Below, piece by piece: positions 7,604-39,710 of a stretch of 64,000 nucleotides of DNA. Below the pieces are notes generated by a model. That model had not been told where the DNA came from. It saw only the letters and a program-made list of their open reading frames with translations, and ran no database searches. The stretch comes from Schmidtea polychroa (Eukaryota), in contig CM097885.1 in the NCBI GenBank assembly GCA_044892525.1, forward strand, positions 18,850,001 to 18,914,000. The letters run 5' to 3'. A program made the position numbers and the translations under genes. Each line of letters starts with the position of its first letter. The first letter of the stretch is position 1.

Positions 7604-8111
7604 TTCTACAAAATAATAATCAAGCCCCTCTATACTGATTGAGATACGACGTCAACCACAAGATTTTGTTGACCCTTTTTCCCTTTAAAAAAAAATATTT
7701 TATTTTAAGACTAACATCTATAAGCTTAGGAACAGTGGAATAAGATTTCCTACTTTATCAAAACAAACACAAAAAAAGGAATTTCGTCAAAATTCGTTTG
7801 TTTAAATCAATCATTTCCATTCAAAATTTTTGTTTACCATGAGTGGTAATTTTAATCACTATTTATAAATTTTAATTTATATGTTAATAAAATGTAAAAT
7901 TTTTTTAGATCGTCATTTTTAGGCCACTTAATTCGGGCACGCTGGGGCGACAGGTACTAGCAACGAACTAAGCTCTTCGTCTGCTTACCTTTCCTTCGGT
8001 TGTGCTCGTTATGAGTGGTTTGCTCTGCATACAAGTAATTTATTTAATTTGCTAATTTCTAAATTTCCAGGTGATCGATATCGGATTGGGATATCGATTT
8101 TTTGTAGTTAA

Positions 8112-8470
8112 CTGTAATAATACCAATAATAATAACAATGAAATAACGATACCAATAATAATAATAATAATGATAATAATAATATTAATAATAGCAATGA
8201 TAGTAATAATAATAAGAATAATAATAAATTTTAATAATGGTAATAATAATAATACTAATAATAATAATAACAAGAATAATAATAAATTTTTATAATGGGA
8301 CTGATAATGATGATAATAATAATAATGCTAATTATGATATTCATAATAATGATAATAATAATATAATAATAATAAGAATAAGAATAATAATACTAATAGT
8401 AATGATAATGTTGATACTGCTAATAGTAATAACCAGGGGAATGATCAGGATTATGATAACTATAATTTTA
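8112..8470. repeat. Degenerate (AAT)n microsatellite inside the LTR (copy at ~37996-38354)
   Basis: Direct reading; it generates spurious poly-I/N/L ORFs. Confidence 0.9.
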
Positions 8471-12750: not shown

Positions 12751-12752
<2 letters not shown>

Positions 12753-14436: not shown

Positions 14437-14518
14437 TGTCTAAATAATTACACTATTACTACCACTATTATTTCATACATTTATTATCTACACTTTATAC
14501 ACGGAATTTTAATTTTTG

Positions 14519-15837: not shown

Positions 15838-17262
15838 CTATCGTATTTCTATTGTTGGTCCTTCCTCATCTAGTTCGATTAGGAAGAATATAGTGTCCTT
15901 TTCTATGTAGGACCCTTCATTAAATTGGTATAGCTGCATAAACTCTGCTACTCCTACCGCAGGATTAACCTCTGTAATCGGTTTATTCCCTGCTGGACTG
16001 GATGCTCGAAAACACATTATATGTGTCTTTTTTGCTCCTAAGAGAGATATTTTTAATCTATGTCGGAATGGCCATGCTATTAGGTCGTCAAAATCTCCTT
16101 TACAAATCTGCATATATATGGACATGCACCGATCTTTAAACTTTCCTTCACCATTTGGAAACCATCTCAATTTCATCTTGTATCCATGTTTCTTGGCGTA
16201 GAATGGTTTGCTCACTATCGTTGTCTGGATTCCTTGCTTTGCTTGCTCCATTATTTCCGTTATTCCTTGGATTTTCCACATGTATGGCAGTATTGGTAGT
16301 TCCTCTGTTGTCAGTTCCTTTGTAGTCCATTTGGTTTGTAATTTAGTTACTTCGACTAATTTGTCGTCTAATTTCAACATCCTTTGTGTTACGGCTTCTC
16401 TCGTATTTTCGAAGCTTTCCTGTGAGCTCAGCATTTCTTTTATCATGATTTTATGTGATTTGAGTTCGTCTTTGACGTCTTCAATTGCTCTTGCTGTTAA
16501 CTCTATTGCTCTCATCATCTTTTGCATGTGCTCGAATGTATTCTCCTCCACATGCTTCTTCATTTCTTCTGCTGGTAATTGTGCTCTACAGTCGAATGTC
16601 ACCATTGGGCATTTTATTGCTTTTCTCGTGCATATCTCCCAATGTTCATTTAATCTGACGTTGTTAATTTCTCCACACTCGTTTGGGCATTTCCCTGTAT
16701 ATTCGTCGCAAATCCGTCTTTCTACTGCGTTTCGATGTTCCATTTCGATTTCTCTCCAATTAGCAGTTTCTCCGCAAAATTCGCATTTTTCCGTTCGCGC
16801 TTCGCATTCCCCTTTATGTTTGGTTTTCTCTTTTCGTAAAAACTTTACCGTGCATGCTTCGCATTCCGATTCCAGATATTCGCATACGTCTGTATGGGCT
16901 CTTAACTCCTTTACTCGGCCTGTCCATTCGCATGACCTTTGGGTGCATCTTATTTTCACTTCTCTGATTTCTCGGTTCATTGCTCTATCCGGTATCGTAC
17001 CAGTGGGAACCAACTTAAATGCTTCTCCACATCCTGGACAAGTTTCTCGCTTTAGTCTGGCTAATCTTATATCACACCCTCGGCACAATCTACACCCGCA
17101 TCGAGTTTGACTTGCTCCAATTAATAATCTTCTACATGCTGTATCGGCACATAATAATCTCTCTTCGAACTCGTCCGGCTCGGCTTGGTATTTTCTCATC
17201 AACTCATAGTTAATCTTTTGTTCCTCTGCTTCTCTCCGGTTTTCCTCTGCTTTGTTTTGCAT
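15838..17262 (-). CDS. TRAF-family protein (RING-like, TRAF zinc fingers, coiled coil, MATH)
   Basis: Cys-rich N-terminus; C..GC/SC.W.G...L..H...C zinc fingers; MATH motifs WKI...SKPFY..GYKMKLR.FPNG...GDFDDLIAWPF...DTIFF. Confidence 0.92.
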   Translation of the reverse strand: MQNKAEENRREAEEQKINYELMRKYQAEPDEFEERLLCADTACRRLLIGASQTRCGCRLCRGCDIRLARLKRETCPGCGEAFKLVPTGTIPDRAMNREIREVKIRCTQRSCEWTGRVKELRAHTDVCEYLESECEACTVKFLRKEKTKHKGECEARTEKCEFCGETANWREIEMEHRNAVERRICDEYTGKCPNECGEINNVRLNEHWEICTRKAIKCPMVTFDCRAQLPAEEMKKHVEENTFEHMQKMMRAIELTARAIEDVKDELKSHKIMIKEMLSSQESFENTREAVTQRMLKLDDKLVEVTKLQTKWTTKELTTEELPILPYMWKIQGITEIMEQAKQGIQTTIVSKPFYAKKHGYKMKLRWFPNGEGKFKDRCMSIYMQICKGDFDDLIAWPFRHRLKISLLGAKKTHIMCFRASSPAGNKPITEVNPAVGVAEFMQLYQFNEGSYIEKDTIFFLIELDEEGPTIEIR

Positions 17263-17351
17263 TCTACAATGATGATTTTTAATCTTGGGATTTCTACTTG
17301 ATTATAACTCTATTTATTTACAGGATTATTTACATTTCACTCCTTTCTCTC

Positions 17352-17955: not shown

Positions 17956-20900
17956 TTATACCAGTGTCGCCATGGGGCCGGAATGCAGCGTGCGCATTCC
18001 CCCATATCTTTCGTCCGTTATTCGGTATATATCGACTTCGTGTGTCCATTCGTTCGGTGTGGGTATTCTTGGTAGTTCCGACATCCACAATCCGCTGGAT
18101 CCGGGATCCTCTACCACCTCGTATTCTTCTAGATTCAGATTCTCTGTTGGAATACCGTATTCAAATTTTTCCACTTTGGGCCATTTTCTTTGGTTTCTCG
18201 GTTTTTGTTTACATCTTTTGGTGGTTCTTATCCACTGAATCATTGCTAACGCTATTATCGTGCTTACTATCGCGCTAGTTATCCATATCATCTTTGTGAT
18301 GATCGTTGTTCCATTATTTGTTTTTTCTGTCGTTAATATTGTACTACCTGTGGTATTTGTTTCTGGTGCTTTGATTTTCTTGAATGCTTGATGTAATCGT
18401 TCCTTCTCTTTTTCTGTTAGGTGACTGTGATTTTCCCGTTTCTCTCCCCCTTTTTGATCTCGGGGTATCCACGGTATGTTTATTAATTGGGGTTTTTGTC
18501 GAGTTATTGGTTGACATACGCTGGTTCCTCTTCCTTTCTTAAGGATACATACTTGGTATCGTTCTTTCCGTTTCCCTGTCTCCATTTTAACGTCTGTACC
18601 TTTGTCTATTGGTGTTGTTGTGCAGTCGATTATTCCCGTCTTATCCATTACACATATCCTTATGATTGGTTCTCCTTCCTGGTTTTTGACTGTAATTACC
18701 TCTTCACCTTTCTTGTTGAGGTTAATAGTTATCTGCACTTCCCGTCTTTCGTCTTTAATTACTTCGTTAATCCATGTTGTTGTTGTTATTAATTCGGTTT
18801 GATTTTGCTCTGTTGTTGTTTTTGTACTAACTGATTTGTTTGGCTTCTTGGTTGTTATCCCCCTCAATGGATCTTGTTTCATTGCCATACTCTTTGGCTT
18901 GTCTTTTCTTGGTGCAGTTCTTGTTCCTTTACATACTACTATCCCTTGTGTTCCTGCGCATACCACAGTAGGGGTATTTGGTTTGACCTCTCCCCAGAAG
19001 AATTTGTGGTCTTGTGTCATATCAGTTATTATGCATATGTCTCTGTCTTCTCTGATGCATACATGTGTAATTGATCGACTCCCTTTATCTTCTATTTCGA
19101 TACCTTCTTCCAAAATGTTGAGTTGAAAATGTACTCCGGTTTCGTTGGCTCTTTCTAGCTCCATTTCCTTTGTTGATATGTCTCTACAGATGTCATAATC
19201 TCCACATAGCCTGGGATCTCTTTTTTGGCTGCTAAAAATCTTTCCTTTTGTTATCGATCTGAAATCACAACTTACTCCTGTTCCTTCCATTAGTTGCACA
19301 CATATTCCGACGGCATTTCCGTCGTAATCACTGACTTTTATCATAAATACTTCACCTTCTTGGGAAGCTTCTCTTACGATTCTCATATTTTTTGTTTCTG
19401 TTAAACAGATGGATGTTAATATTATAAATATTCTTTGTAGTAGGATTGGCTGGATTTGATTTCGACACACTATGCTATGTAGTGGGGACTTTCGTTTTTT
19501 GTTCTCCGTTTTGTCGAATCCTTGATCTTCACCTCGACATTGGTCTTCTTCGTCTTCTTCCAATTCCTCATCATCACTCGTTGTTTCTCCGCCTTCCGGA
19601 TTCTGTTCTCTGTCGTTTTCCTCTGGGTTGTTATCGTTATCCCCCATCCTTTCGTCGTCGTCGTCGTCGTCATTCCTCTCACCCGGGGTTTTCCTGAAAA
19701 TGTCGTCCTCGACATTTGCTGCTTTGATCATCTCCTCGTATTTTTTAATTATCTCTTTTTTGTCGTTGTGGATACTTTCTCGTTCTTCTTTGGTTCCTTG
19801 ATATTTCCGTTGTTTCCGGTGCCATTCCCACACTAGTATTCCTAGTTGCTTTTTCATCGCATGTGTTTTTGTGCATTTCCACCAATTACCTGTCAATTCT
19901 GTTCTATTTCTCTGTAATATTGCTTTAATGGTTTTTGGCATTGGTGGTCTTGAGTATATGGCGCTTCTTAGTACGATATTTTCGTTGTTTTGGAATTGAT
20001 TTATATCAATTACTTCCGCTCTTAATTCGTTTTGTTTCCATTTGATTAATATTGCTGCGGTTCTGTCTAAGTTTCCTCTGATGGCTTCCAGAATTGGTTC
20101 AATGCTCTGTCCCAACACCTCGGCTTCTTCGGTTGTTGCATTTCCTGTGATAAAGTTCACTATACTAGGTCTTTTTGACCTGACGGCATAACGTAATACG
20201 GTTCGTTGTTTGTTGTCTTTTTCTTTCAGCGTGGATCCCGTTCTTAATAATTCTCTGAGTACATCTCTTGACGCGCCTATTGCTATGGCTTTCATCAGTG
20301 GAGTTTTTCCTTTACTGTTTTTGACGTTTGTTGATTGTTTGCAGTTTTCCATTATTCGTATAATCTCTAAAGCTCGTTTTTCTTGTCCTGCTTTCACTGC
20401 ATGATGGATTGGCCAGTTATTACTCAAATCACTTGTTAGGAACATGATTGGTAATCTCCGGATTAGTTCATATATTTGAGTCGGTATTTGTAATCCTTCG
20501 GCATATCTTCGTCCTTTCGCATATCTTTCTGCTACTAACATTAGTTTGCCCAATACTTGGTATTTATTGGTTATATCGGCCCATTCTGGTACAATTTCTC
20601 GTGCTATTTTTACTGTCATATTCCATGTTGCTTGGCTCCTTGCCATTGCGTCAGCTTCGCTTTCTGCTTCAGTTCCTTTATGGGCGCTGCTGCTTGTTTC
20701 TCCTCTCAACATGAATATCCGTCTTGTCTGTGATCTAGTTAATCTACCGCTTACTTCTGGTTCCGTTGTGGCATTTGTTTGTGATCTCGTGATTATCCTT
20801 CTTGTTTCTGGATCTTTAGTGGCAGTTTTCGCCACTGCTTTGCATCGACATGTATTCACATAAATGGGTCTAATTAGTGGATTGTTAACCAACTTCACTC

Positions 20901-23900
20901 TAGCGTTGTTCTCGTTTACATAGATGATTTCATATGGCCCTCTGCCATTACGTTGTAATTTCTTTGCTGTTCCTGGGATTAATTCGGGTGTTTCTATAAT
21001 AACCCAATCTCCGATTTTAAATTGATGGTTTTGCACGTTCTTCTTTTTATCATGTAATTCCTTATAACTCTCTTGGTTGAATCGGATGTTCATCCCTGCG
21101 GTTTTCCATATTTCTTGCATTCTCTCCTTGAACTTTGTCACATAATCATCTATCTCCATATATTGTGAGATTGGCGGTTGGTATTCGAGATCCATCGGCA
21201 TGTTGCATTCCCTTCCATACATGAGTTTAAACGGACTCATTTTCGTTGCTGAGTGTATTGACATTCGATAAGCCATTAGGCACAACTTAATATATTCATC
21301 CCAGTCCTTTTGATGTTTACTCACGTAATTGGACATCATGTCTATTAGTATGCCGTTAAATCTTTCTGTCTGACCATTCGTTTGCGGGTGGTATGGTGAG
21401 GTTCTCAATTTGGCAATTCTAAAATAATTTGTCACTTCATTTATTATTTCGCTCATGAAATTAGTTCCTTGGTCAGTTAAGATTTGTTTTGGTGTTCCAT
21501 ATCTGCAGCAGATCTCTTCCACTAATATCCTTGCAACCGTTCGTGCTTTCTGGTCTGGCATCGCAAATGCTTCAGGGAACTTAGTCAGATAATCAGTTAT
21601 TACCAATATATACACATTTCCACTGTTAGTCTCTGGTAGTGGTCCAACTACATCCATTGCAATCATTGTCATCGGTTCTGGCGGTATCGGCATTGGTTTC
21701 AATGGTGGCTTTAGTTTACTGCCCGTTGTTTTTCTGGTTGCGCATATCAGGCAGTTCTTTATCCATTCTTTCACGTCATCGCTCATATTTGGCCAGTAAT
21801 ATTTCTGTTTGAGCCTTGCTTCTGTTTTCTTGGCTGACATATGTCCGCCCAATTTACCATCGTGGTATTGAATCATAATTGCTTTCCGTCTACTTTCTGG
21901 TAGACACATCAATCGTTTGTCGCCATCCATTACCAATAGCCATCCTTTCTCGATCGTATATCTGTGACGATTTTTCTCCATGTGTTCTTTTAGTCGATCA
22001 TCGTTGTTGAATATTTTCATATCGTTTTTTTCCAGGAACTCAATTATTAGTTTTAATTCATTGTCTTCCTTTTGTTCGTTCTTTAGATTGGTAAAATCGA
22101 TATCTTCCGCGATTATCAGGCATATTCGTCTGACGTCATGATCCATGAGTTCCTCAAATACAAATCTCGACATGCAGTCTGCATTTGCGTTTGCTTTTCC
22201 TGACTTGAATTTGATGTATGGGGAATATTCTTGTAACTGCATTGCCCATCTCATCAATCGACTAGATGCCTCTTTATGTTGGCCCAACCAAACTAGAGGT
22301 TGATGGTCCGTAGTAATAATTATCTCGTGTCCCCATAATAAATATTTGAAATGTTTTATCGCCTGAATTATTGCTAAGGCTTCTCTTTCTGTGACCGAGT
22401 AATTCTTCTCGTGTTTTTTGAACGTCTTGCTATAATATCCGATGACTCTTTCTCTTTTCTCCTCATCCCATTGTCCTAGCACAGCTCCTGATGCGTATCC
22501 ACTTGCATCAGTTGCTAATAAAAAAGGCTTTTTGAAATCTGGGTGGATTAAGATAGGCGAGGCTATTAGTTTATCTCTTAGCGATTCGAAAGCTATTTGC
22601 TGTTCCCTTTCCCACAGAAATGGAGTATCTTTTTTTGTTAGTTCTTGAATTGGTTTTGCGATAGTTGCATAATTTTTGATAAACTTGCGGTAGTATCCGC
22701 ATAATCCCAGAAATTCTTGTACCTGAGTCACGGTTTTTGGTATCGGACAATTCTTTATTTTCTCAACGTTTCTCGGATCTGGTTCTTTTCCTTTTGCCGA
22801 CACAATGTGTCCTAAAAATGTGACTCTCTCCTTTGCCCAGTCGCATTTTGACGGTTTCAATTTCAGCTTCCATTGTTTCAGTCTTATGAATACGTTTCTG
22901 ATGTCGATTAAGTGTTGCTCGAAAGTACCTGAATAAATTAACAGATCATCGATATACACCATACATTGTTTGATCCCGTGTGTCACAAAGTTCATACATC
23001 TCTGAAACGAAGCAGGTGCGTTTGTTAATCCAAATGGCATCTTTTTAAACTGATATAAATCTTTTCCGATGGTAAAGGCTGTCTTTTCTCTATCTTCCTC
23101 TTTAACTTTAATTTGCCAGTATCCACTCTTTAGATCTAAAGATGTAAAGTATGCTGCTCCATGCAACATCTGTAACATTTCGTTTATGTCTGGCAGTGGA
23201 TATGTATCTCTTTTTGTTACTGCGTTCAACCTCCGATAGTCAATACAAAATCTCTGTGTGCCATCTTTCTTTTTGACCATTACCACTGGGAATTGCCATG
23301 GTGAGCAACTAGGTTCTATTACCCCAGCATCTAACATCTTTTGTACTTCTTCCTCTGCTACCGTTTTTTGTGCTTCAGCCAATCGATATGGTCTTAACGT
23401 TATGGGTGTCTCATCTGTTAATGGTATAATGTGTTGAGTTACATCGCTAGTACCCAAATCCAAATCTGAAGCCGCAAAAATATCTTTAAACTCAATCAGT
23501 AGTTGTCTGAGTTGTTCCTTTTCGTCTTTATTTAGGAGTTCGCTATCGATGGTCCATAATTCTTTTTCGTCTGCTCCCTCGCTTTTTATCTCCGGTAGCT
23601 CAATGTTCATCATTGGTGTGAGTTTTCCAAGTCTCTCGTTTTCGTAGATTACTTTATCTTCCTCATCAAAATTGGTGATATTGATGGGTATCTCGTTATC
23701 CTCATTTATACTGACAATTTCTCTTGCCAATGGCAGCTCCCTTCTCTTCTCGAATTTTTGACTTGGTTCAAATATCATATCTCCTTTGGCTTCGTTATCG
23801 ACCTTGACATAACATATTGTCTGGGTACGTGCTGGTATTATCATTTTTTCGGAGCATCTCACTTCTGTTCTCATTGTGCATATCTGTCCAGTTTTATCTT

Positions 23901-26900
23901 TTAATTTCATGGAACTCAAATCAATCACAATTTCTTTCAATAATTCCGGCATTACATCTGTTCCAATTATACATGATACGCTTAGCTGTCTAATGACTGC
24001 GAGGTACGTTGTAACTTTAACCCCTTTATATTCAATCGTTGACCATACTCTTCCTACCACCGCTATGGATTGTTTGCTGCATGTTATTACATCCATGGTT
24101 GTCTCTTCAATGCATGGCCATAGTCTGCCTGGTAGCATATTCATATTTATTGCCGAAATATTTGCTCCGGTATCGATCATTGCATCCATTTCTATTCCGT
24201 TTACTTCGACCGTGATGGTTAATGATGGTCCGGCTGGTGTCTGCAATACCGCAATCGTTCGTGTCTCCACTTCTTGTTCTACACTTTTAGCCTGTTTGAT
24301 CATCGTTGGATCCATTGCTGCCCAATTTGGTTCATAAGCTGTTGGATAAATGTTCGGTATGGGTAATCTTCCGGTTCCCATTCTTATCCGTTCTCTCATT
24401 GTTCCTGGTCGTCGCATTGGTCCATTAGTTGGTGCTTGTAAATATGGGGTCTGTGAATACGGTGATCCCCATGGTTTCATTTTTTCGTTTTCCCAAGTGG
24501 CTGTATTTTTATTTATCAACATTGCTCCTCCTTGGTTATTATCATCGTCGTTGAAATCATCATTGTCGTTGTCACTATCATCGTCTCGTCTGAGGTTCAT
24601 CCACTTTTTCCACTTCCCGGTTCTTTTTGCTTTCTCTTGAGTTCTTTCTGCTTCTAATCTCATTATCACTTTGAACTTACGTCCGACTTCTTCGTCTGTC
24701 CCTTTCATTTGCGTTAGTATTTTCAACAATCTTTTTATTCGATGAATATCCTTTGAGTGTCCATGCAACACCATTGTTTTCGCTAAGAACGGTAAGAATC
24801 CAATTGCAAGTTTCCAATTTACTTTTCTCTCGCGCTTATAGATGTCAAAACATGCTAGCATCTGGGTTAGTATTACTCTGACTATTTGTATTATCAGAAT
24901 AATTCCGAGTATTCCTGCCATCATTTGGCCAAATACCAAAAATCGACCCCACATAGCCTTCATCATGTTTGCTGTTGCTTGTTGATAGTGACTTGGTGAT
25001 AATAATAGCTCGTAATTTGGGCTCTCCCCATAATTATTTCCTCCAGAAATAGTCACTATATTTGATAGGATCGCTTGTCTGTGTGCTGGGAATAACATGT
25101 GGGCCCTTGCTGATTCAAGATCTTTTGGTGTATATAATCCACTCTGTGATACGTCTATCGGCTTGAACTCTAATTCTGTTGTTAGTTCCGTTAATCCAAA
25201 TTTCTTGGGTGTCACTACGATTGTTTTACTTGGAAATTGAACCCATTGTCCATCTTCTTTTTCATACATTGGTCCATATGCATTACTGCAATTAAACAGA
25301 TTTGGCTGAAACCCTACCGGGTTCATTATCCTAGTGACTGCTTGCACAAACCTGGGTTTACCTTCGTGAATAATTTCGAGTTCGTTTGCACACTTATCCC
25401 TTGGTATTGTAGGGTTTTCCGGCAATCTTGCCATTATCTTTTTGCATTGGTAGGTGTACATCACTTCGCCCACGATTCGTCCGAAATATCCTTCCTGTAA
25501 TGGTAGTAGTGGAATTGCGTTATCTGGATTTGTAATCGCCATTGCTAATTTTGTTCTCAATATTTCTTTGTTGAGCAGGCAATCGTTTCTTAACAGATCA
25601 TGGTAGACTTTTTCCGTGGATGTTAATCCTCTGTGATATAAGAAATCCATCTTATTATTAGCGTATAAATATAATTTGACATCCTTTTCGCTTAGTCTTC
25701 CGACTGCATTTGCTAGGGTTCTCCGCGACAAGTAGATCCCTTTATAATTGGTGCTGATCACCATCTCATCGCATTTACTCACCATTTTGTTCTTTATGAA
25801 CCTCATTCCTATTCCATCGTCTTTGGAGATTATCGCTGTGGGTGTTACTTCCGATTCCAATTTCGATGTTATTACGTCTTCCCTGAATCCTTTCCTTGCT
25901 CTCAATTCTTCCATCGCTCGTCTCTCTGCTTCTCCTTTTGGTTCACTGTACACTTTCCCTTGGATTTCTTCGAATATTGCTGTCTTGAGTAACATTAGTC
26001 GACATACTTTCTGATCTGCGTGGTATACCAGAGTTGACATTCCGGTTGAACATGATCGATCTGATGCGAGACAGCTTGGGTATTTCTTCATTGCTTGCGT
26101 GTCAGGGTCAAAGTAGCCTTGATACTTTTCCAATTTAGCTTCGTAACTTTCTATTACGACCACTCCACTAACCAGTTGTCCGTTCAAGGTGTATGTTCCT
26201 GTCTCACATGTTCCGTCTCCTTTAGTGATTCTGCCCGCCGTATATACGCGAGTCGTTTTTATTTTTCCTGGTTCTGCAGCGATTTCAATCCCTTGCCTTA
26301 AGTGGATTCTCCCTGATCGGAACCCTTCCTCGCATTCCTCTCTTGATAGTAATATTACTGTCGATTCCAATCCTGGTTCTATGATTGTTGAGTGTGAGGA
26401 TGAACCGCAGTGATGTGCGAATATCTTTCTGGTTACCGTACACTCTTGGACCATAGTTTTGATGAAATCTGCTTCTTGATATACGTTGTACGAGACTGAT
26501 GCCATGACTGTTTGTAATTTTCTTGGGTTTGCCGCTTTACAGTCTTCCGTATCCTTTAATGAATATTTCTCATGGATTTTTATGTTGTCGCAGTCGTATA
26601 CTGCAAATGACTCCGTTCCTTTGATACACATCATCCATATCAATATCGTGGTTATTATGGCATTCATTCCCTTTCGACTTGCTCTTGGGTCGTTTATATT
26701 GATTGTTCCTTCGAATTCAGTTAGCAAATCGCGTAACTTTGCTTGCATCATTTCCGTTTGATCTTTCTTCCCAGTTGATTCGATGAAGCTTCTCCATCCC
26801 CCTTGTTCAAGTATATATGGTTCTATTGATCGTTTAATTATTTCTGTTACTGTGAATTCGTAACCCGTTGCGTTATATTTTGGCATTCGTTTTTTATATT

Positions 26901-29900
26901 GACCGATAACGTTATATACTAAATATGCTAATCCCACTAAAAATCGATTTTGGTCCTCTGATCTGCTTAATAGATGTTCCACAATTAATCTGAGTTCCAC
27001 GGGATCTTTTAACGTTAATCGAATTTTATTATCCATGATTTTCATTATTATCGGTTTCAATACTGCCCATAATTGTTTGGCTTCGGTCGGAATATTATCC
27101 TTCCTCATGACTCTTTTCACTTCTGGATTTGCTAATGCTAACATGTTGGCTAATAGGTCATTTATCCATCGTGTCCCTTGTTCTCGGACGCTTGTCTTCA
27201 CTTTCACTTGTTTTACTAATGCACTTAGTTTATCCATTTTAGTTTTTACCTGCTCCATTTGCGCCTGAACTTTGGATTTTGGTTCGATCTCTGCTTTATC
27301 TGTTTTTGGTCTTCCTCTTGTTCGTCGATCCATAGCTGTTCCGGTTTCTTTCCGTTTTGGCGGATTGTAAGTTGTATCTTTTGACGTGGTCGCTCCTGGA
27401 TCTACTCTCCAGTTGCTCCATTCATCGGTTGTGGTTACATCTTTATTGGCACCTCTTTCCACGTTATCTAAATCCGTCTCGGCTTCCGTCGTTTCCACTG
27501 GTTGTCTCTGCGCGCATACAAATCCATCTAAATCATCAGTTGTCGGTTCACCTTCGTCGATAAATAGATCTCCTGATTGCGATGCTCTCATAATCTCGCC
27601 TGCTTCTACTATCTCTTGTAATTCATCCAGTATTTCGTCTTCTCCCGTTGTTTCGATCGTCACTTCACTAACCGCATTTGGAACTTCTGGTGTGTCCAAA
27701 CTTCCTGGTTGTTGGGTGGATGATTTTTGCTTTATCTCTCTTCTCCTTAGCTCTCTACCTGCAATTTTACTCACCGTTAATCTGTTCACAATTTCTCCTT
27801 GGAGTGGTGTCACACCGATCTCAATATCGTCGTCTAATGATCGTCCCTCGTGTTGTAAGTGGAATGGGAGTTCATAAGGTATTCTCTTTTTAACTTCTCT
27901 GACTTTAGCTGTCGTATAGAATTCCTTTTCCATTGGTTCAAAATCTGGCATGAATATTTTTAATTGATATTTCTCAGGTGAGTTTTCGGCCCACTCTCGT
28001 TGTTTCCATTTCCGGATGATTTCACCAAATTGTTCAGGGTACCATACGTATACCCGTCGATATTCTTCAATCGCTTTAACGATCTTTCGTAGGTTTTGAA
28101 TCCTTTTGCATGATTCGGCTATCCATTTTGCTAGTTCTACCACCGCTCGTCGACGATTTTTCGCCCCGTTTTGTAATATCTCCATCAACTCCTTACATTT
28201 TTGTGCTTCCAACAATGTTGCTGCTTCCTCCTCATCTGCATCTGCGTCTATTGGTAGATGTCCTGAATCAGGCACTCTTCTCCTCATCATACAGATTCTC
28301 GGTTGATTTTCTGGTATGTTCAGTCGTTGGTTCATTTCTTGTTCTGTTTCAACTTCTACTCTGATCTGGATAGCATTGTTTTTCACAAATTTTGACTGCT
28401 CATTCTCAATGTAACTTAGACGTATTAATTTAGGTGTCCCAGAAGCGATATTTTCTGATGTTGTTGGTCGTTGATAGCAGGCGCTCCTTGGATCTGGTTT
28501 CAATGTTTCTTTATGCATGTTAAGGCTATCTTTCAATGGTTCGATTGCTATCGTCACTTTTCTGCTAAACGGCCATGGTACCTTGTCGTCATAATTTCCT
28601 TTGCAGATGGCGAAGAATGCCGACACATAATTTCCTTTACCTATCCCGTCTCCGTTCGGGTATATTCGCAATTTCATCTTGTACTCACCTAATCCTGAGT
28701 AGAACGGTGGACTTACTAATCGTGTGATTTTCTCTTCCTTTGCTGATTTTATCTTTTCCATCCAATTCTCAATTTTCCACGTGAATGGTGCTAACCTTAC
28801 TGGTTCTCGTATCTCCTCATCTTCTCCTGATGGTAATTCATTTTGGAATTCTTGTGGTAATATATCCTGGTAAGTATCGATCGGTTTCTCTCTTACCCAT
28901 ACTGCTGCGATCTCTTCGGGTATATTATCTATCCAATTTGGTTCCAACTTTTGCTGCTCCCAATCCCATCGAGCTTCACTTTCGATCCACACTTTTTTCC
29001 ATGGTATCAGTTTGCAATCTTCGTCATTGAAGGCTGCTAGTTTTAGTTTATCATCCTTTAGCCAATGGTTATAAATATCTATTATTCGATCCATCTTTGC
29101 TCTCATTCCCCATTGGAATCTTTTAACTTGTTGCTCGGTTTTCGTGGCGTTTTTGTGCCCACCAGATGGTTCATCCATCGCGATTATATTGATGACGGCT
29201 CCGTCTTCCCAGATTCCTAGTTCGTAAATTCCAGTTCGGTCTCCTCTTTCCAGCATGTGCCGGTTGTACATTATTATCACATCTTCGATCATTCCATCCT
29301 CACTATTTTCTCGAGCTTTTTGGATGATCTCTTGATCTATGATTTGCACTAACTCGTCAACTTGGCAATCGGGATTAACTTCTATTATTTGTTTCTCTTC
29401 ATTTGGCAACTTCACCTTTATTTTTATCGTTTCATGCTCGCATTTGGTTCTCTCGTATTCTCCGTATTTAGATATCAATTCTGTCGCTCGTTTGTCTTCG
29501 AATCTCATGATTTCCGTGTCTCGTACGTCTTTAACGAATTGTTTCATTAGTTGTGGCCATCTTTCTCTCAGTCTATTAATGTATTTCCTTGTCTGATCGA
29601 TAGCTTGTTTGACTAAGATTATTTGATTTTCTTTCATTATTTTTCGTTCGATCTTTTCCAATTCTGGTTCCACTTCATTGTTAAACACTTGTTGGATTTT
29701 CTTGAACATTTCTGCTACCGAGTCGTCATCTCTGGTTTTCTCTAAGGTTAAGATGTTAGTTTCGTTTGGCCATATCATCGCATCTACCAAATGTATGCCC
29801 ATTTTAACTTTGTAACCATCGACATATAATTGTTTATTTTTATGGCTCGTTCCCATTTTTTCCTGTACCCAGTTGTACAGTTCATCGGTATTTGTTCCTT

Positions 29901-32022
29901 TTAATTCAATAGTCTGTATCTGAATCTCGGGGTGTTGAATACTTACTTGATATTGATCTGGGCCTGCTTCCTTTAGTTTCTCTTTATATTTTGTTGCTAC
30001 ATCTTTCCATGCTGCCGTTATTATACCTCCTTCACACTGGTATACTTGAGTTATAAGTTTTAAGCATTTTCTGTATGTTAACTCGTTGATGTAGTTCTCA
30101 TTTCGCTCTATTTCTGTTACTGTGTCGAGAATTTCCTCGAATATCTCTTCTTCATCTTTTTCTATCATTGATTTCATGTCATCATTTTCACTCTCCTCAC
30201 TACTTTGAGGTGTTTCACTGTTTGGAGGTGTTTTCGGTTCGTTATTTTCCTCACTTGACTGAAATAATTCGCCTCCCAGGCTACTCACCTCACTTTTCTC
30301 ATCTTCCTGATCCGTCTGATCGCTCCGCATTTGTCTCAGCATGCTTATTTTAGCTTTGGTATGTGGTTCCTTCTTTTCAAACCACTCATTTTTCCTGAAC
30401 CAATGCTCTTTCACTTTTTCTTTTATTTGTTCCTCAGTTAATGTAGGATTTTCGTTTTTGATTCTGTCTTCGATTTTTTGTAGTAGTACCCTCTGAATTC
30501 GATTTTTTGTAATTATCTCATTGCTTTTTGGTTCGTCTTTACTCTCATCTCTCTTTTGTCTCCTTTCTTTCTCCTCTTTGGTAAATTCTTTAATCAATTG
30601 TATTTTCTCTTCACTGCTCAATTCTGTTCGTGGATCAATCTCATCTTCTTTTGTCGTTTTTATCTCCTTGTTTATTATCGGTTCACTCCCGTCGTTGTTA
30701 ACACACTGCTCCGCAGTGTGCGATTCCTCTTTATTTGTTAATCTCATCATATTTATTCTTCCGGGATTCGCTTCCCGTTGTTTCCATCTTTCTTGAATTT
30801 CTCTGGCTTCCTCGTTTTGTAATCTTTGCCATTCGACTCGTTGCTGATCTTGTTGTTGCTTACTTGGTTGGTTCCGGATTTCCTCGGTGCTCTGCATCAT
30901 GTTGATTCGTTGTTGTTGGTTATTAGTCGGTATTCGCAGGATCATATCTTTTAATTGTTCGATTTCCTGCATGAGGTTGATTTGTGTGTTCTGAACTGGA
31001 TTGTTTGATCCTGGTTGATTTGGTTTGGTTCTCATCGTGCATTCTCTTGCCATGTGTCCCGGCTGATTACAATTGTAGCAGGTTCTGGTTCCTCCTCTGC
31101 TCATAGACATCATGGGTCCTCTGCAGACATTTTCCGTGTGGCCTCTTCTCCCACACTTTTGACACATCCTTGCTTTATAACATTCATTGCTCCAATGCCC
31201 TGGTCGTTGGCATATGTTGCACGTTCGATTGTTGATGTCGTTGTTCCTGAAATTATTAGTAAAATTTTGAATATTACCTCCATTGTTTTGGTTTCTTGTT
31301 TGTGGAGTTTTGAACAACTGTTGCGATCCTGGGATAAATTGATTCATTACTGGATTTGCATTATTGACTTGGTTGTTTGTGGTTGTTGCTGTTGTTGCTG
31401 GAGCTGCTGGGGCTGCTGTCATTGCTGCTACTTGTATTGGTGTTAGGTAAGTTTCACATTTGTTAGCTATTTTTAGTGCTTCTTCCAGCGTCTCTGGTGC
31501 TCGGCATCCCAAAGTTGCTCGTATATCCTCCCGTTTCATGCCATCTACGAATACGGCTATTATTTTGTCTTCCGGAACTGGTTGATTTGAATCGAAGGCT
31601 TCTCGTGCTAGTCGTCTCAATTCGCATGCGTACAGTGCGTTGGATTCGTTATATTTCTGCTTTCGATGCAGAAAGTCTAACATTTTTCGATTTCCCTCTT
31701 TTTCGGTACCGAATGTTTTTATTAAAAATTCCTTGATCTCTTTCCACGTTCTCAACTTAGTTGCATCACATTTCGCCTCCAAGTATACATCTTGGGCGCT
31801 TCCCTTTAGATATAGGGGTATTCGTTCTCGTACGACTATGTCTGGCCAGTGACATATCGTAATGTATACTTCGAATTCCTTTATAAACGTTTCCAGCTGG
31901 TTTATATTTCCATCGAATGGCTCTCCTCGAAATTTCTCTCTGAATTCTCCAATGTTGACGTGCACATTACTTGTTTCCGGTGGGTCCGTTAGCCCTGTTA
32001 CATTTGGAATTCCGTCTGTCAT
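17956..32022 (-). CDS. Giant polyprotein Gag-UBL-UBL-MATH-UBL-Bcl2like-Env-PR-RT-RH-IN-ANK-membrane protein
   Basis: Frame is open from 32322 and the first ATG is at 32022 (the track starts at TTG 32244). CCHC x3 31039-31221; MATH ~28348-28788; DTG 24166-24174; YIDD 22945-22956; RNase H TDASG ~22500; integrase HHCC/DDE/GPY ~20900-21900; ankyrin ~20050-20415; C-terminal TM 18229-18291. Confidence 0.95.
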   Translation of the reverse strand: MTDGIPNVTGLTDPPETSNVHVNIGEFREKFRGEPFDGNINQLETFIKEFEVYITICHWPDIVVRERIPLYLKGSAQDVYLEAKCDATKLRTWKEIKEFLIKTFGTEKEGNRKMLDFLHRKQKYNESNALYACELRRLAREAFDSNQPVPEDKIIAVFVDGMKREDIRATLGCRAPETLEEALKIANKCETYLTPIQVAAMTAAPAAPATTATTTNNQVNNANPVMNQFIPGSQQLFKTPQTRNQNNGGNIQNFTNNFRNNDINNRTCNICQRPGHWSNECYKARMCQKCGRRGHTENVCRGPMMSMSRGGTRTCYNCNQPGHMARECTMRTKPNQPGSNNPVQNTQINLMQEIEQLKDMILRIPTNNQQQRINMMQSTEEIRNQPSKQQQDQQRVEWQRLQNEEAREIQERWKQREANPGRINMMRLTNKEESHTAEQCVNNDGSEPIINKEIKTTKEDEIDPRTELSSEEKIQLIKEFTKEEKERRQKRDESKDEPKSNEIITKNRIQRVLLQKIEDRIKNENPTLTEEQIKEKVKEHWFRKNEWFEKKEPHTKAKISMLRQMRSDQTDQEDEKSEVSSLGGELFQSSEENNEPKTPPNSETPQSSEESENDDMKSMIEKDEEEIFEEILDTVTEIERNENYINELTYRKCLKLITQVYQCEGGIITAAWKDVATKYKEKLKEAGPDQYQVSIQHPEIQIQTIELKGTNTDELYNWVQEKMGTSHKNKQLYVDGYKVKMGIHLVDAMIWPNETNILTLEKTRDDDSVAEMFKKIQQVFNNEVEPELEKIERKIMKENQIILVKQAIDQTRKYINRLRERWPQLMKQFVKDVRDTEIMRFEDKRATELISKYGEYERTKCEHETIKIKVKLPNEEKQIIEVNPDCQVDELVQIIDQEIIQKARENSEDGMIEDVIIMYNRHMLERGDRTGIYELGIWEDGAVINIIAMDEPSGGHKNATKTEQQVKRFQWGMRAKMDRIIDIYNHWLKDDKLKLAAFNDEDCKLIPWKKVWIESEARWDWEQQKLEPNWIDNIPEEIAAVWVREKPIDTYQDILPQEFQNELPSGEDEEIREPVRLAPFTWKIENWMEKIKSAKEEKITRLVSPPFYSGLGEYKMKLRIYPNGDGIGKGNYVSAFFAICKGNYDDKVPWPFSRKVTIAIEPLKDSLNMHKETLKPDPRSACYQRPTTSENIASGTPKLIRLSYIENEQSKFVKNNAIQIRVEVETEQEMNQRLNIPENQPRICMMRRRVPDSGHLPIDADADEEEAATLLEAQKCKELMEILQNGAKNRRRAVVELAKWIAESCKRIQNLRKIVKAIEEYRRVYVWYPEQFGEIIRKWKQREWAENSPEKYQLKIFMPDFEPMEKEFYTTAKVREVKKRIPYELPFHLQHEGRSLDDDIEIGVTPLQGEIVNRLTVSKIAGRELRRREIKQKSSTQQPGSLDTPEVPNAVSEVTIETTGEDEILDELQEIVEAGEIMRASQSGDLFIDEGEPTTDDLDGFVCAQRQPVETTEAETDLDNVERGANKDVTTTDEWSNWRVDPGATTSKDTTYNPPKRKETGTAMDRRTRGRPKTDKAEIEPKSKVQAQMEQVKTKMDKLSALVKQVKVKTSVREQGTRWINDLLANMLALANPEVKRVMRKDNIPTEAKQLWAVLKPIIMKIMDNKIRLTLKDPVELRLIVEHLLSRSEDQNRFLVGLAYLVYNVIGQYKKRMPKYNATGYEFTVTEIIKRSIEPYILEQGGWRSFIESTGKKDQTEMMQAKLRDLLTEFEGTININDPRASRKGMNAIITTILIWMMCIKGTESFAVYDCDNIKIHEKYSLKDTEDCKAANPRKLQTVMASVSYNVYQEADFIKTMVQECTVTRKIFAHHCGSSSHSTIIEPGLESTVILLSREECEEGFRSGRIHLRQGIEIAAEPGKIKTTRVYTAGRITKGDGTCETGTYTLNGQLVSGVVVIESYEAKLEKYQGYFDPDTQAMKKYPSCLASDRSCSTGMSTLVYHADQKVCRLMLLKTAIFEEIQGKVYSEPKGEAERRAMEELRARKGFREDVITSKLESEVTPTAIISKDDGIGMRFIKNKMVSKCDEMVISTNYKGIYLSRRTLANAVGRLSEKDVKLYLYANNKMDFLYHRGLTSTEKVYHDLLRNDCLLNKEILRTKLAMAITNPDNAIPLLPLQEGYFGRIVGEVMYTYQCKKIMARLPENPTIPRDKCANELEIIHEGKPRFVQAVTRIMNPVGFQPNLFNCSNAYGPMYEKEDGQWVQFPSKTIVVTPKKFGLTELTTELEFKPIDVSQSGLYTPKDLESARAHMLFPAHRQAILSNIVTISGGNNYGESPNYELLLSPSHYQQATANMMKAMWGRFLVFGQMMAGILGIILIIQIVRVILTQMLACFDIYKRERKVNWKLAIGFLPFLAKTMVLHGHSKDIHRIKRLLKILTQMKGTDEEVGRKFKVIMRLEAERTQEKAKRTGKWKKWMNLRRDDDSDNDNDDFNDDDNNQGGAMLINKNTATWENEKMKPWGSPYSQTPYLQAPTNGPMRRPGTMRERIRMGTGRLPIPNIYPTAYEPNWAAMDPTMIKQAKSVEQEVETRTIAVLQTPAGPSLTITVEVNGIEMDAMIDTGANISAINMNMLPGRLWPCIEETTMDVITCSKQSIAVVGRVWSTIEYKGVKVTTYLAVIRQLSVSCIIGTDVMPELLKEIVIDLSSMKLKDKTGQICTMRTEVRCSEKMIIPARTQTICYVKVDNEAKGDMIFEPSQKFEKRRELPLAREIVSINEDNEIPINITNFDEEDKVIYENERLGKLTPMMNIELPEIKSEGADEKELWTIDSELLNKDEKEQLRQLLIEFKDIFAASDLDLGTSDVTQHIIPLTDETPITLRPYRLAEAQKTVAEEEVQKMLDAGVIEPSCSPWQFPVVMVKKKDGTQRFCIDYRRLNAVTKRDTYPLPDINEMLQMLHGAAYFTSLDLKSGYWQIKVKEEDREKTAFTIGKDLYQFKKMPFGLTNAPASFQRCMNFVTHGIKQCMVYIDDLLIYSGTFEQHLIDIRNVFIRLKQWKLKLKPSKCDWAKERVTFLGHIVSAKGKEPDPRNVEKIKNCPIPKTVTQVQEFLGLCGYYRKFIKNYATIAKPIQELTKKDTPFLWEREQQIAFESLRDKLIASPILIHPDFKKPFLLATDASGYASGAVLGQWDEEKRERVIGYYSKTFKKHEKNYSVTEREALAIIQAIKHFKYLLWGHEIIITTDHQPLVWLGQHKEASSRLMRWAMQLQEYSPYIKFKSGKANANADCMSRFVFEELMDHDVRRICLIIAEDIDFTNLKNEQKEDNELKLIIEFLEKNDMKIFNNDDRLKEHMEKNRHRYTIEKGWLLVMDGDKRLMCLPESRRKAIMIQYHDGKLGGHMSAKKTEARLKQKYYWPNMSDDVKEWIKNCLICATRKTTGSKLKPPLKPMPIPPEPMTMIAMDVVGPLPETNSGNVYILVITDYLTKFPEAFAMPDQKARTVARILVEEICCRYGTPKQILTDQGTNFMSEIINEVTNYFRIAKLRTSPYHPQTNGQTERFNGILIDMMSNYVSKHQKDWDEYIKLCLMAYRMSIHSATKMSPFKLMYGRECNMPMDLEYQPPISQYMEIDDYVTKFKERMQEIWKTAGMNIRFNQESYKELHDKKKNVQNHQFKIGDWVIIETPELIPGTAKKLQRNGRGPYEIIYVNENNARVKLVNNPLIRPIYVNTCRCKAVAKTATKDPETRRIITRSQTNATTEPEVSGRLTRSQTRRIFMLRGETSSSAHKGTEAESEADAMARSQATWNMTVKIAREIVPEWADITNKYQVLGKLMLVAERYAKGRRYAEGLQIPTQIYELIRRLPIMFLTSDLSNNWPIHHAVKAGQEKRALEIIRIMENCKQSTNVKNSKGKTPLMKAIAIGASRDVLRELLRTGSTLKEKDNKQRTVLRYAVRSKRPSIVNFITGNATTEEAEVLGQSIEPILEAIRGNLDRTAAILIKWKQNELRAEVIDINQFQNNENIVLRSAIYSRPPMPKTIKAILQRNRTELTGNWWKCTKTHAMKKQLGILVWEWHRKQRKYQGTKEERESIHNDKKEIIKKYEEMIKAANVEDDIFRKTPGERNDDDDDDERMGDNDNNPEENDREQNPEGGETTSDDEELEEDEEDQCRGEDQGFDKTENKKRKSPLHSIVCRNQIQPILLQRIFIILTSICLTETKNMRIVREASQEGEVFMIKVSDYDGNAVGICVQLMEGTGVSCDFRSITKGKIFSSQKRDPRLCGDYDICRDISTKEMELERANETGVHFQLNILEEGIEIEDKGSRSITHVCIREDRDICIITDMTQDHKFFWGEVKPNTPTVVCAGTQGIVVCKGTRTAPRKDKPKSMAMKQDPLRGITTKKPNKSVSTKTTTEQNQTELITTTTWINEVIKDERREVQITINLNKKGEEVITVKNQEGEPIIRICVMDKTGIIDCTTTPIDKGTDVKMETGKRKERYQVCILKKGRGTSVCQPITRQKPQLINIPWIPRDQKGGEKRENHSHLTEKEKERLHQAFKKIKAPETNTTGSTILTTEKTNNGTTIITKMIWITSAIVSTIIALAMIQWIRTTKRCKQKPRNQRKWPKVEKFEYGIPTENLNLEEYEVVEDPGSSGLWMSELPRIPTPNEWTHEVDIYRITDERYGGMRTLHSGPMATLV
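24760..26667 (-). other. Envelope glycoprotein domain (chuvirus-G-like) within the polyprotein
   Basis: Internal signal MNAIITTILIWMMCIKGTES, then AVYDC..YSL....C, HCGSSSH, SREEC, GEVMYTYQC, C.NEL, SGLYT..L....MLFP; TM at 24857-24950. Confidence 0.8.
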
Positions 32023-33113
32023 TATTTCTTGACACAAAATTGTTATATTGGTTGACTCTGAACTATTTCCTTCCTCGTCTGATGATTCAATGTCACTTAT
32101 CGGATCTAGTTCGGTTCGTTTAAGATCGTCGCTGTTCTCAAATTCGTTTGTTAAACTGTCTGATTCAAATACTGTTTCTACTGATGCTGGCTTCCTGTGT
32201 AGTTTTCTGTTGGTCTTGGCCTTTTGTATCTCTTCCTTTTCCAATAAACTGAGGTTTCCTTTACTTTTTCGCCTCGTTCGGTTAGCTATGCTATCAATTT
32301 TTCCTCCTTTTAATATCCTTTGCTAAATTTTCTACTTTGTCAATCGAGCTCGATGTTTTCTAAGTATTTTTCTCGCTTTAATCTTTACGATTCTCTAACT
32401 CTTCTTGGATTTGGTTTTATTAATTTCCTTGATTCTTCGCTTCTAATTGATTTCTCTATATCTCTTGATTTCTATTGCTTTCTTGATTTCTTTGATTTCT
32501 TTCTGAATTGTTTGCTTTATTCTAAAATAATTAACACCTCTAGTACATATCATAAATTCTCTTTGTTAAACCCTTCATTTACTTTCCCTTTTCCCTTTAT
32601 TTTACTGTCCCTTCGCTTCAAATTTTCTAGCTTTTCTACACTTCTCGCTATTCGCCCCATTTTGATTTTAAGTTGATTTTAAATTATCTATAACTCGTAT
32701 CAATTATCTATATAGTCGTATCAATTATCTATCCCTTTTATTATTATCATAGAAATATAATATTAATCACATAAATATCAAAATAAACATATCATTAATA
32801 AATAAAATTCAATAATTCAACTACTATCTATTCGTTCGCTTTTCCCCATCCAAAAACTGGTTTAATTTTCGCTTGCGCCGGCGCTTTATCATAATTCTCC
32901 TCTACTCATTACATATTTATCGCACTTAATCTATTTCAGTTTAATCAATTTCATAGTTAATCATTGATGCTTTGGTTCGCGCGACCTCTACATCCACCTT
33001 TATTTACCATCGGCTCTCTGGCCGGTTTGTTCAACTCCTTTATTTTCATTTAAATCATTTCACTCAATTACCATCGGCTCCTTGGCCGGTTTAATCAACT
33101 CATTTTAATCTCA

Positions 33114-34834: not shown

Positions 34835-35317
34835 TTATGGGAGGTATATTACAATTTTCTCTCTAACATTCGTATCGCATACGTCGCATCGTTTAATTTT
34901 CTCTGCGCAATTCTCGCAGTAGCATAAATGACCACATGGAATCGTCATTACTCGTATTTCATTGGTTCTGCATATGAAGCATTTTCTAAAATCTTTAACT
35001 TGATGTTCGATTGCTTCTTTAATTTCTTCCTCGATCGTTTCCATTTTTATCATTATCTCCTGCCATTTGATGTTAAATTTGGCATTGTCTAATCGTAAAT
35101 TTTGAAGTTGATAAACTCTTTTAGTGGTCAATTCTGCATTAGGTGTCGCTATTTTCATCATTACGCATATTTCCTCAGCTTGCGGTCTTGGATTCAAGCT
35201 CATCTCATCTTGGATTTTTATCAACTGGTCCGCTTTGCGATTTAGCCGTTGTAACGAATTGTGTGTTAAATCTACGAATTTTTCGAGTCTCTTTGTAATG
35301 TAGCCGGTTGATTCCAT
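34835..35317 (-). CDS. Upstream accessory coiled-coil plus IAP-type RING protein
   Basis: CFICRTNEIRVMTIPCGHLCYCENC....CDVC...KIVIYLP at the C-terminus; lies between the PBS and gag. Confidence 0.85.
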   Translation of the reverse strand: MESTGYITKRLEKFVDLTHNSLQRLNRKADQLIKIQDEMSLNPRPQAEEICVMMKIATPNAELTTKRVYQLQNLRLDNAKFNIKWQEIMIKMETIEEEIKEAIEHQVKDFRKCFICRTNEIRVMTIPCGHLCYCENCAEKIKRCDVCDTNVREKIVIYLP

Positions 35318-36034: not shown

Positions 36035-36441
36035 AATTTGTATGGTGGGTTACTGGTGGTTGAATGATTGAGTGCTGTTACCAGCGTAACCCAAAATACA
36101 ACATTGTTTTTTCCGCTTGGTACCCGTTGAGTGATCAACGTTGGTACTGTACCAAGGGTTGAGTACTCGCAAAAAGTGAGCGCATCAAAGCACTATAGTT
36201 GTCGAGTACTCCGTGGGTTCACGGACTACCGATAGAAGGTGTGTGTCCGATTTCTCAGGTCCCTTTATCAAAATTGTTTTCCCAACCTTATGCACAAACT
36301 CTCATTTCCCAGGCAATCATAAACTGTACTAGTCATTATTTTATCACTACAAAACGTGCAGTATTTTAACAAGGAACATATTATTTGAAGACTACCACCA
36401 TACATAAAAATACTACAAAACACCTAAAACCGAATATAAGT

Positions 36442-36912
36442 TCAAACAGGCTTATTGGTAGGACTGGCCAATTCCGTCGCATCTGCTAGTGACGAATTTG
36501 CTTGTCGCTCGTATTCGGCCAGTCTAGCTTTCTTCAATTTTTCCCGAATATTTCGGCCTAACCGCTTTCTTGTGGGTTTCTCTTTCGCGGCCGGGGGGTA
36601 TATTGCTGCTAGTTCCACGGTCAACGGCCGGATTTGGCTTATGGCGGCTCCGTGAACTACTTGTTCATTGCGTTCGGTTTTTAACGCGCGGAGCTGGAGT
36701 TTCAGTGCCCGGATCTCCATCTGATCCTGCGCAGCTTGCGTCTGCAGTTGAAGGACCTGCGCCACCTTCTTTTTCATATCCTCGGGACTAAACCAGGTGC
36801 TTTCTAGTTCCCGGCATCGTCCCTTGAGCTTGTCTACTCGTATGCGGAGCTCCTCGGACTGTTTTTGAGCATCTGCTCTATCTCTTCGCAGATTTTCCAA
36901 TAGTTTGAACAC
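36442..36912 (-). CDS. LTR-encoded coiled-coil protein (5' LTR copy)
   Basis: Identical translation to 6558..7028. Confidence 0.7.
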   Translation of the reverse strand: MFKLLENLRRDRADAQKQSEELRIRVDKLKGRCRELESTWFSPEDMKKKVAQVLQLQTQAAQDQMEIRALKLQLRALKTERNEQVVHGAAISQIRPLTVELAAIYPPAAKEKPTRKRLGRNIREKLKKARLAEYERQANSSLADATELASPTNKPV

Positions 36913-37121
36913 TAGATAAATTCAACGATTATATTCTTGCAGCATACTCTTCATTCAATTATAAAATAAAATCAATATTATAAATAAACATAGTTTCGGA
37001 TGTTAAGCACGCAATACACAAGATGATTTATTAAAAGGACTGAAATAATTATCACTAAAATCAAAGTTTAATAAAGTCACAACTGGATGATAATTTGCAA
37101 AAACAAAATTTTGACGATGAG

Positions 37122-37487
37122 TCAGTTCAGTCGCTTGCGAGGCCTTCCCCTCTTCCGCGGGGTTGCCTCGGCCTCTTCTAGGTCCTCCACGGTTTTTCCC
37201 TCTTTTTCTGCTTGGATTTGTAGCTCGATTTTCTTGAGTCGCATCTGAGCTGCTTCTACCTCGATGGCCGCTCGGTCGCGGGCCTCTTGCAAAAAATCGT
37301 TTGTGGGCTCTGTTTTTACCCACGCCGGAGCGTCCGGCTCCGGCCCACTCCTGATTACTGGGCCAAAGTTGTCGAGGTCCAAACCCCGATTCCAATCATG
37401 GATACGGTGCCATATGTACCGTGTACGGAGTCTGGTAAGCATCTGTCGGTCGACTTCTTCGTGGCTATCGCTGTCAGAGTAGGACAT
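37122..37487 (-). CDS. LTR-encoded AT-hook protein (5' LTR copy)
   Basis: Identical translation to 7238..7603. Confidence 0.7.
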   Translation of the reverse strand: MSYSDSDSHEEVDRQMLTRLRTRYIWHRIHDWNRGLDLDNFGPVIRSGPEPDAPAWVKTEPTNDFLQEARDRAAIEVEAAQMRLKKIELQIQAEKEGKTVEDLEEAEATPRKRGRPRKRLN

Positions 37488-39627: not shown

Positions 39628-39710
39628 GCTTACTATCGATTTTGGAAATTTCGTCACAAAAATTTGGCATAAAAGTGATTGATTGTGACTGAAACGTGTC
39701 AGTATATATA
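39628..39710 (-). promoter_or_regulatory. Candidate LTR core promoter and first splice donor
   Basis: Minus strand: TATATATA (39710-39703), Inr-like TCAGTC/TCACTT downstream, then GATA|GTAAGC donor at 39633. The TATA block is retained in relics at ~45615 and ~53684. Confidence 0.5.

Follow-up and report, generated by a model that had tools for sequence, protein, structure and literature searches.

Does a retrotransposon in a planarian genome carry a Bcl-2 protein of its own, and if so, what would it do there? The question is raised by a stretch of 64,000 nucleotides of Schmidtea polychroa DNA (assembly GCA_044892525.1, contig CM097885.1, positions 18,850,001 to 18,914,000; hereafter the window), which contains a giant Gypsy long terminal repeat (LTR) element of 34,208 bp on its minus strand. 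Coordinates are window positions, and all coding features and LTRs given below lie on the minus strand. The largest open reading frame (ORF1, 17956..32322) encodes a polyprotein of 4,788 amino acids (aa) from stop to stop, with the first Met at aa 101. Shortly before its envelope glycoprotein (Env), a first-pass annotation had proposed a Bcl-2-like domain. The segment, at 26767..27189 (aa 1712-1852), is in our judgment very probably a strongly diverged Bcl-2 homologue, as indicated by leave-out hidden Markov models (HMMs), hhalign, Foldseek comparison of a low-confidence model, and the ratio of nonsynonymous to synonymous differences (pN/pS). The wider reading, a divergent Bcl-2-family domain in a Burro-type polyprotein that works as a pro-survival mimic, with the Env signal peptide as its predicted tether to the endoplasmic reticulum (ER), could fall either way with about equal ease.

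Motifs of the Bcl-2-like domain

Both motifs described in the first-pass annotation are real and are in frame with the 4,788-aa ORF. The Bcl-2 homology 2 (BH2) motif PYILEQGGWRSFIE occupies 26779..26820 (aa 1835-1848); the span given earlier, 26817-26785, covers YILEQGGWRSF, in which YILEQGGW follows the BH2 pattern W/Y-I-x3-GGW. All 20 aligned copies, drawn from five element families (that of the window and four sister families, B-E), keep the GGW unchanged. The hydrophobic helix NRFLVGLAYLVY corresponds to aa 1792-1803 (nucleotides 26949-26914). The suspicion of a degenerate BH1 is likewise borne out: at the BH1 position (DQNRFLVGLAY, 26923..26955; register from alignments) DQNR stands in place of NWGR, with the Arg kept and the Trp and Gly lost. 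NWGR is absent from all sister families as well, where its counterparts are NRDK, DRDV, DKEV and NKEV/NKDV, and canonical BH3 binding is uncertain because of this loss. Helix 1 contains WINDLL, which fits the BH4-like phi-phi-x-x-phi-phi pattern, and the Leu of this motif is invariant in the family alignment.

Homology and predicted fold

The sister families were found by a genome scan with Pfam PF00452, which gave matches within long ORFs, and by searches with Env and a sister domain. Their reverse transcriptases are ~50% identical to that of the window element, and in each of the four a Bcl-2-like domain lies directly before the Env signal peptide. As single domains B, C and D match the Pfam Bcl-2 family with E values of 1.9e-6, 1.8e-3 and 9.3e-6, and family E matches at 0.01 within its long ORF; the sister domains stay under the gathering score (maximum 28.8 bits vs 31.4), and the window domain is 13-21% identical to them. 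An HMM built from 16 copies of families B-E, with the query family excluded, gives the 147-aa window domain 25.1 bits. None of the full shuffles of the domain reached this score (maximum 8.1 bits; 974 scored of 1,000), nor did any of 1,000 shuffles that kept the sequence from BH2 onward (maximum 23.7, mean 5.9). Across the whole polyprotein the only clear domain found by this HMM is aa 1717-1850, and a second HMM, built on five Bcl-2 genes that lie outside Burro elements in this genome, picks only aa 1775-1846, with 17.8 bits. A Burro-only profile of seven sequences, compared with PDB sequences, found Bcl-2/Bcl-xL in all of the best 60 of 197 matches (best E 5e-5). By hhalign the Burro profile matches the non-Burro Bcl-2 set with 96% probability (E 1e-9) and the single window sequence does so with 75%. 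Significant sequence homology to the Bcl-2 family is thereby established transitively, through the leave-out HMMs, the Burro profile against PDB, and hhalign. Large protein-database searches were silent, with no relatives scored among 682 and 1,498 candidates. Two matches in a further large protein search were repeat-summing artefacts, to Ig-repeat and ankyrin-repeat proteins.

A fold model was built on an alignment of 20 rows, all from Burro elements. Its seven helices follow the order seen in Bcl-2, a family whose bundle has 7-8 helices around a hydrophobic helix 5, and the predicted local distance difference test (pLDDT) score of the model is 49.3. When it was compared with the PDB by Foldseek, entries of the Bcl-2 family, by title, filled all 43 listed rows, headed by Mcl-1 (probability 1.00, TM score 0.53, E 9e-3, root-mean-square deviation 6.9); a single-sequence model (pLDDT 39.7) still places Mcl-1 first, at E 0.73. 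In a viral structure library A179L of African swine fever virus (ASFV) ranks first and many viral Bcl-2 proteins (vBcl-2s) come next, interspersed with unrelated rows. Since Foldseek also uses sequence, the fold ranking is not fully independent of the motif. The identity proposed in the first-pass annotation is upheld in part: homology through transitive profiles and a weak fold match stand on one side, and a pLDDT of 49.3, a best E of 9e-3 and the lack of a direct Pfam match on the other.

Conservation, selection and common inheritance

In a survey of genome copies of the domain in which 150 candidates were scored among 682, all 150 match at 97-99% with zero internal stops, and many copies sit in frames of ~4,790 aa. 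For the selection test, six copies were found with a pattern that excludes the window codon at one BH2 glycine, which biases one synonymous site, and five were compared, L172 being omitted because its translation equals that of L168. The pN/pS of the domain against four diverged same-family copies is 0.11, 0.07, 0.04 and 0.09; the near-identical copy L167 gives 0.14, from three changes. Values for the four diverged copies are 0.01-0.22 in Env and 0.13-0.18 in an acidic linker, and dN/dS between sister pairs is 0.12-0.49 (8 of 9 pairs; one saturated). The Bcl-2-like domain is under purifying selection.

The Pol, Env and Bcl-2 trees of the five families have a common topology, ((A,B),(C,(D,E))), and a branch with support 82/98 splits nine Burro rows from seven host and Polinton Bcl-2 rows; the one copy in the tree from a Polinton, a DNA element, groups with a host gene and not with the Burro domains. 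It is likely that the Bcl-2 domain was captured once, by an ancestor of the five families. ORF1 is shorter in families B-E (3,058-3,437 aa) and has no MATH or ankyrin (ANK) match there, and no TRAF or IAP was found in the stretches examined, which include part of the flanks. Because these families keep Bcl-2 and Env without MATH, ANK, TRAF or IAP, the pair looks to predate the other cargo of the element.

Possible membrane anchoring and processing

About 40 residues after BH2 there is a basic patch with a short hydrophobic segment behind it, and then FAVYDC and the Env ectodomain. From its hydropathy (2.47 over 13 aa, 1.35 over 19 aa) and the basic residues before it, the segment MNAIITTILIWMMCIKGTES (26608..26667, aa 1886-1905) is predicted to be an internal Env signal peptide. 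In all five families the Bcl-2 domain is followed by a basic patch, the signal peptide and Env, in this order, and the linker from BH2 to the start of Env varies from 44 to 72 aa among them. A possible role for the signal peptide as C-terminal anchor of the Bcl-2-like domain fits this order. It would insert with its N-terminus in the cytosol, be cut from Env, and remain on the upstream product; that it is in fact kept there as an anchor on the Bcl-2 product seems to us an evenly poised matter.

A motif chosen by eye, [RKQ]I-x-[MLT][MLI][RQI], occurs 8 times in ORF1, four times after the Gag knuckles and once each after MATH, after the protease (PR), between RNase H and integrase (IN), and after IN. 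Its recurrence near domain borders suggests a processing site, and RICMMR (28282..28299) would then be the final putative protease site ahead of the Bcl-2-like domain; from aa 1347 up to the signal peptide the motif does not occur. If these motifs are protease sites, the element protease would cut after MATH and not again before the signal peptide, and signal-peptidase cleavage would leave a ~560-aa product ending in the Bcl-2 domain and an ER membrane tail.

Proposed function of the domain

The Bcl-2-like domain would likely help to keep the host cell alive. In the mechanism we propose, its partners would be BH3 helices of the host (Bak/Bax-like or Beclin-type), bound in a non-canonical manner, and this binding, together with the IAP and TRAF also encoded by the element, would delay the death of the producing cell. 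The presence of these two proteins counts in favor of a pro-survival reading. A host cell-death pathway exists, as knockdown of planarian bcl2-1 leads to systemic cell death (PMC6970515). Complex prediction for the domain and a host BH3 stretch (L173:8522-8623), whose Bak/Bax-like identity is inferred, partly by eye, returned no verdict, with a score of 0.00 and no alignment used. On balance, we regard the idea that a pro-survival BH3 sponge is the main job of the domain as no better and no worse than an even proposition.

Several observations weigh against the pro-survival, ER-tethered reading. At the level of identity, the window domain alone matches no Pfam family, a phmmer search of the single domain against the PDB gave nothing better than E 1.3, resting on BH2, the fold model has low confidence (pLDDT 49.3, predicted TM score 0.35), and Foldseek returned no match at E 0.001 in either the PDB or the viral library. 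The branch for monophyly of the Burro domains carries no star, and the trees of Pol and Env contain long branches that come together. Purifying selection spans the whole polyprotein, including the acidic linker, and so does not identify a function. The hydrophobic core of the predicted anchor is short, at 13-15 aa, and a signal-peptide anchor would insert in the ER, whereas Bak acts at mitochondria. The processing motif was picked by eye, which biases its shuffle control (8 occurrences vs a mean of 0.14), and it was not seen in families B-E. Finally, NWGR is gone in all five families, three of which lack even the basic residue. Both Gly and Arg in NWGR are important for the binding of BH3, and ORFV125, which has SPGR, still binds, with affinity for Puma ~250-fold weaker (PMC9027176).

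A fuller scenario, in which an env-bearing lineage took up Bcl-2 before growing giant and reuses the Env signal peptide as a tail anchor, would yield an ER-tethered vBcl-2 that lacks NWGR and is released from a Gag-Env-Pol polyprotein, a working one of a reverse-transcribing element and present in hundreds of near-intact copies; we put it forward only tentatively and hold it less likely than not.

The strongest competing explanation, which we hold to be possible though somewhat doubtful, is that the domain has the Bcl-2 fold but serves as a scaffold without binding BH3 helices, and instead damps innate signaling, or autophagy and ER-calcium control, with TRAF, MATH, the IAP-type RING proteins and ankyrin. 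Poxviral N1L, which acts on NF-kB, and the A46/A52 group are models for such a non-BH3 signaling scaffold. That five families have all lost NWGR systematically while BH2 and the core are retained would be expected of it, as would the TRAF/MATH/IAP/ANK cargo of the window element, and a swinepox A52R-like protein appears at rank 14 in the Foldseek viral library. Inhibition of NF-kB seems to be N1L's main role, and several vBcl-2s target Beclin 1 (PMC11209288), which also speaks for a scaffold. The sister families, however, keep the domain without MATH or ANK in ORF1 and without TRAF or IAP in the stretches examined, which makes the domain independent of this cargo, and the best structural matches, Mcl-1 and A179L, are BH3 binders.

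We consider it rather improbable that the domain is instead a cytosolic Env leader that serves to assemble particles or to process Env and plays no part in controlling host cell death, along the lines of the foamy-virus Env leader peptide. Its fixed place beside the signal peptide in five families, its inheritance with Env and its eroded groove motif would suit a leader, but no test ties the domain to Gag or to membranes, the length of the BH2-to-Env linker is variable (44-72 aa), apoptosis-type genes accumulate in the element family, and the genome also holds a Polinton with a Bcl-2 of its own. A chance GGW in an unrelated helical spacer, or a decayed relic, could account for the lack of a direct Pfam match, the low identity to sister domains and the weak models, but is largely refuted by the failure of every motif-keeping shuffle to reach the observed score, the low pN/pS and the consistent fold ranking, and is very improbable.

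Organization of the element and its surroundings

The two LTRs (5′, 36043..40366; 3′, 6159..10482) are 4,324 bp each and 100% identical over this length, begin and end with TG...CA on the minus strand, and are flanked by a 4-bp target-site duplication, ATAG, at 6155-6158 and 40367-40370. Together these features indicate that the insertion is young. Each LTR also contains two ORFs of 159 and 137 aa (within 6558-7651 and 36442-37535), which have relatives at other loci, including sister family C (L098: 57% and 72% identity).

ORF1 runs in the order Gag, MATH, Bcl-2-like domain, Env, PR, reverse transcriptase (RT), RNase H, IN, ankyrin and a second predicted membrane glycoprotein. Gag contains three CCHC zinc knuckles (31036..31233; Pfam zf-CCHC, with the CCHC pattern at aa 368, 387 and 415), and after them comes the MATH/TRAF-C domain (28351..28785; MATH_2, E 6e-29). 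Env (24853..26607; PF24664, E 9e-68) is a Monjiviricetes-type fusion glycoprotein with a C-terminal transmembrane helix at aa 2467-2485. Downstream lie an aspartic protease with DTGA (23941..24222; gag-asp_proteas, E 1.4e-4), RT and RNase H (22225..23277; RVT_1, RT_RNaseH), the zinc-binding and core regions of integrase (21385..21900; Integrase_H2C2, rve) and ankyrin repeats (20146..20409; Ank_2, E 7e-8). The end of ORF1 (17959-19455), with a hydrophobic segment at aa 4290-4308, a Cys-rich region and a transmembrane helix at aa 4678-4696, is predicted to form the second membrane glycoprotein, and gave no convincing Pfam match. Late hydrophobic segments occur in the sister ORFs too, two in three of the four and one in the fourth. 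Pfam gave no match to a ubiquitin-like domain between MATH and the Bcl-2-like domain or to a dUTPase-like domain between PR and RT, the places where Burro elements have these domains; a weak ubiquitin-like match lies upstream of MATH (E 0.012), and another is present in family C (E 7e-4).

The accessory ORFs include a full TRAF-like protein with TRAF zinc fingers and MATH (15838..17301; Pfam), an IAP-like protein with BIR and RING (14519..15697; BIR, E 1e-15; zf-C3HC4_3, E 3e-12) and, upstream of ORF1, an IAP-type RING finger (34835..35317; zf-C3HC4_3, E 5e-12). Four more, of 341, 269, 533 and 153 aa (within 10837-14439 and 17352-17813), match no clear Pfam family; the 341-aa product resembles a signal-peptide and transmembrane protein, and two of the four resemble coiled-coil proteins.

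Outside the element, an old inverted remnant akin to the LTR (45239-49000; 72-81% in short arms) has many relatives of 73-89% in the genome, and following it toward diverged relatives revealed no Bcl-2 region. Intronless RRM/RS-rich ORFs, Tra2-like by eye, flank the element on both sides (1128-1901, RRM_1 E 2e-16, and 62985-63743) and are ~77% alike in DNA over 278 bp. A large near-perfect inverted repeat at 2136-4281 surrounds a gag-like fragment. Elsewhere in the genome, a host Bcl-2 gene with intact NWGR is present in seven near-identical copies (L021-L027; G000:C4, 89.9-90.8 Mb), and Polinton/Maverick-like elements carry many dispersed, small, stand-alone Bcl-2-like genes with a hydrophobic tail (L036-L041, L043-L050, L059-L062), which adjoin ORFs for TBP, an A32-type ATPase, an rve integrase and a PolB-like protein; in one such subfamily a short intron seems to precede BH2.

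Relation to known systems and implications

The first-pass annotation knew of no precedent for a retrotransposon-encoded Bcl-2, and in this it was mistaken. According to PMC6431247 (Arkhipova & Yushenova 2019), where env is placed between BCL2 and PR, Grohme et al. 2018 observed a BCL2-like motif in the elements Burro-2, -3 and -4. The window element has the architecture of Burro/GYPSM1 (Jurka 2007; Grohme et al. 2018) as given in that paper, which by itself points to a dugesiid planarian as the likely host: a length over 30 kb (here 34,208 bp) with long LTRs (4,324 bp), one ORF of ~4,800 aa (~4,800-5,100 aa among Burro elements) with a mononegavirus-type Env in frame between gag and pol, PR-RT-RNase H-IN, three CCHC knuckles, MATH, a BCL2-like motif, ankyrin and BIR. 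Compared by description only, Burro1/GYPSM1 differs in having an ORF of 4,873 aa, against 4,788 aa stop to stop here. RNA of BURRO1 goes up under RNAi of smedwi-2 (PMC8532177). Both element type and motif are in print. Section 7 of PMC6431247 presents the Burro BCL2 as a motif call only, without a fold test, selection, BH1 analysis or anchor model; relative to it, the homology tests, the selection analysis, the conservation across five families with co-inheritance with Pol and Env, and the predicted ER tether model are new. Among the open-access papers listed by our literature searches, one of which gave the top 20 of 91, we found no functional or structural study of the Burro BCL2 domain beyond it.

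Those viral mimics of Bcl-2 that have been characterized derive from large DNA viruses (PMC11209288). Like ASFV A179L, KsBcl-2, ORFV125 and N1L, the window domain belongs to a mobile genome and has diverged BH motifs and, by prediction, a Bcl-2 fold, whereas those mimics are stand-alone genes and the domain described here is embedded in a retroelement polyprotein, lacks NWGR, and has no tail of its own except the Env signal peptide. With cellular Mcl-1, Bcl-xL and the host genes (L021, L028, L033) it shares BH2, the BH4-like pattern in helix 1 and a predicted hydrophobic central helix 5, and it departs from them in the absence of NWGR, a score under the Pfam cut-off and its place within a polyprotein. 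Adintovirus/Polinton elements are also integrating animal mobile elements with Bcl2 and IAP homologues (PMC8502044); the Polinton Bcl-2 differs in being a separate small gene of a DNA element with its own tail.

What is gained is support for a reported motif and a testable model, comprising a short domain, a BH3 candidate from the same host genome and a prediction of how the domain is anchored. A functional vBcl-2 encoded by a retroelement, if true, would mean that transposons steer host cell death in an animal with constant tissue turnover.

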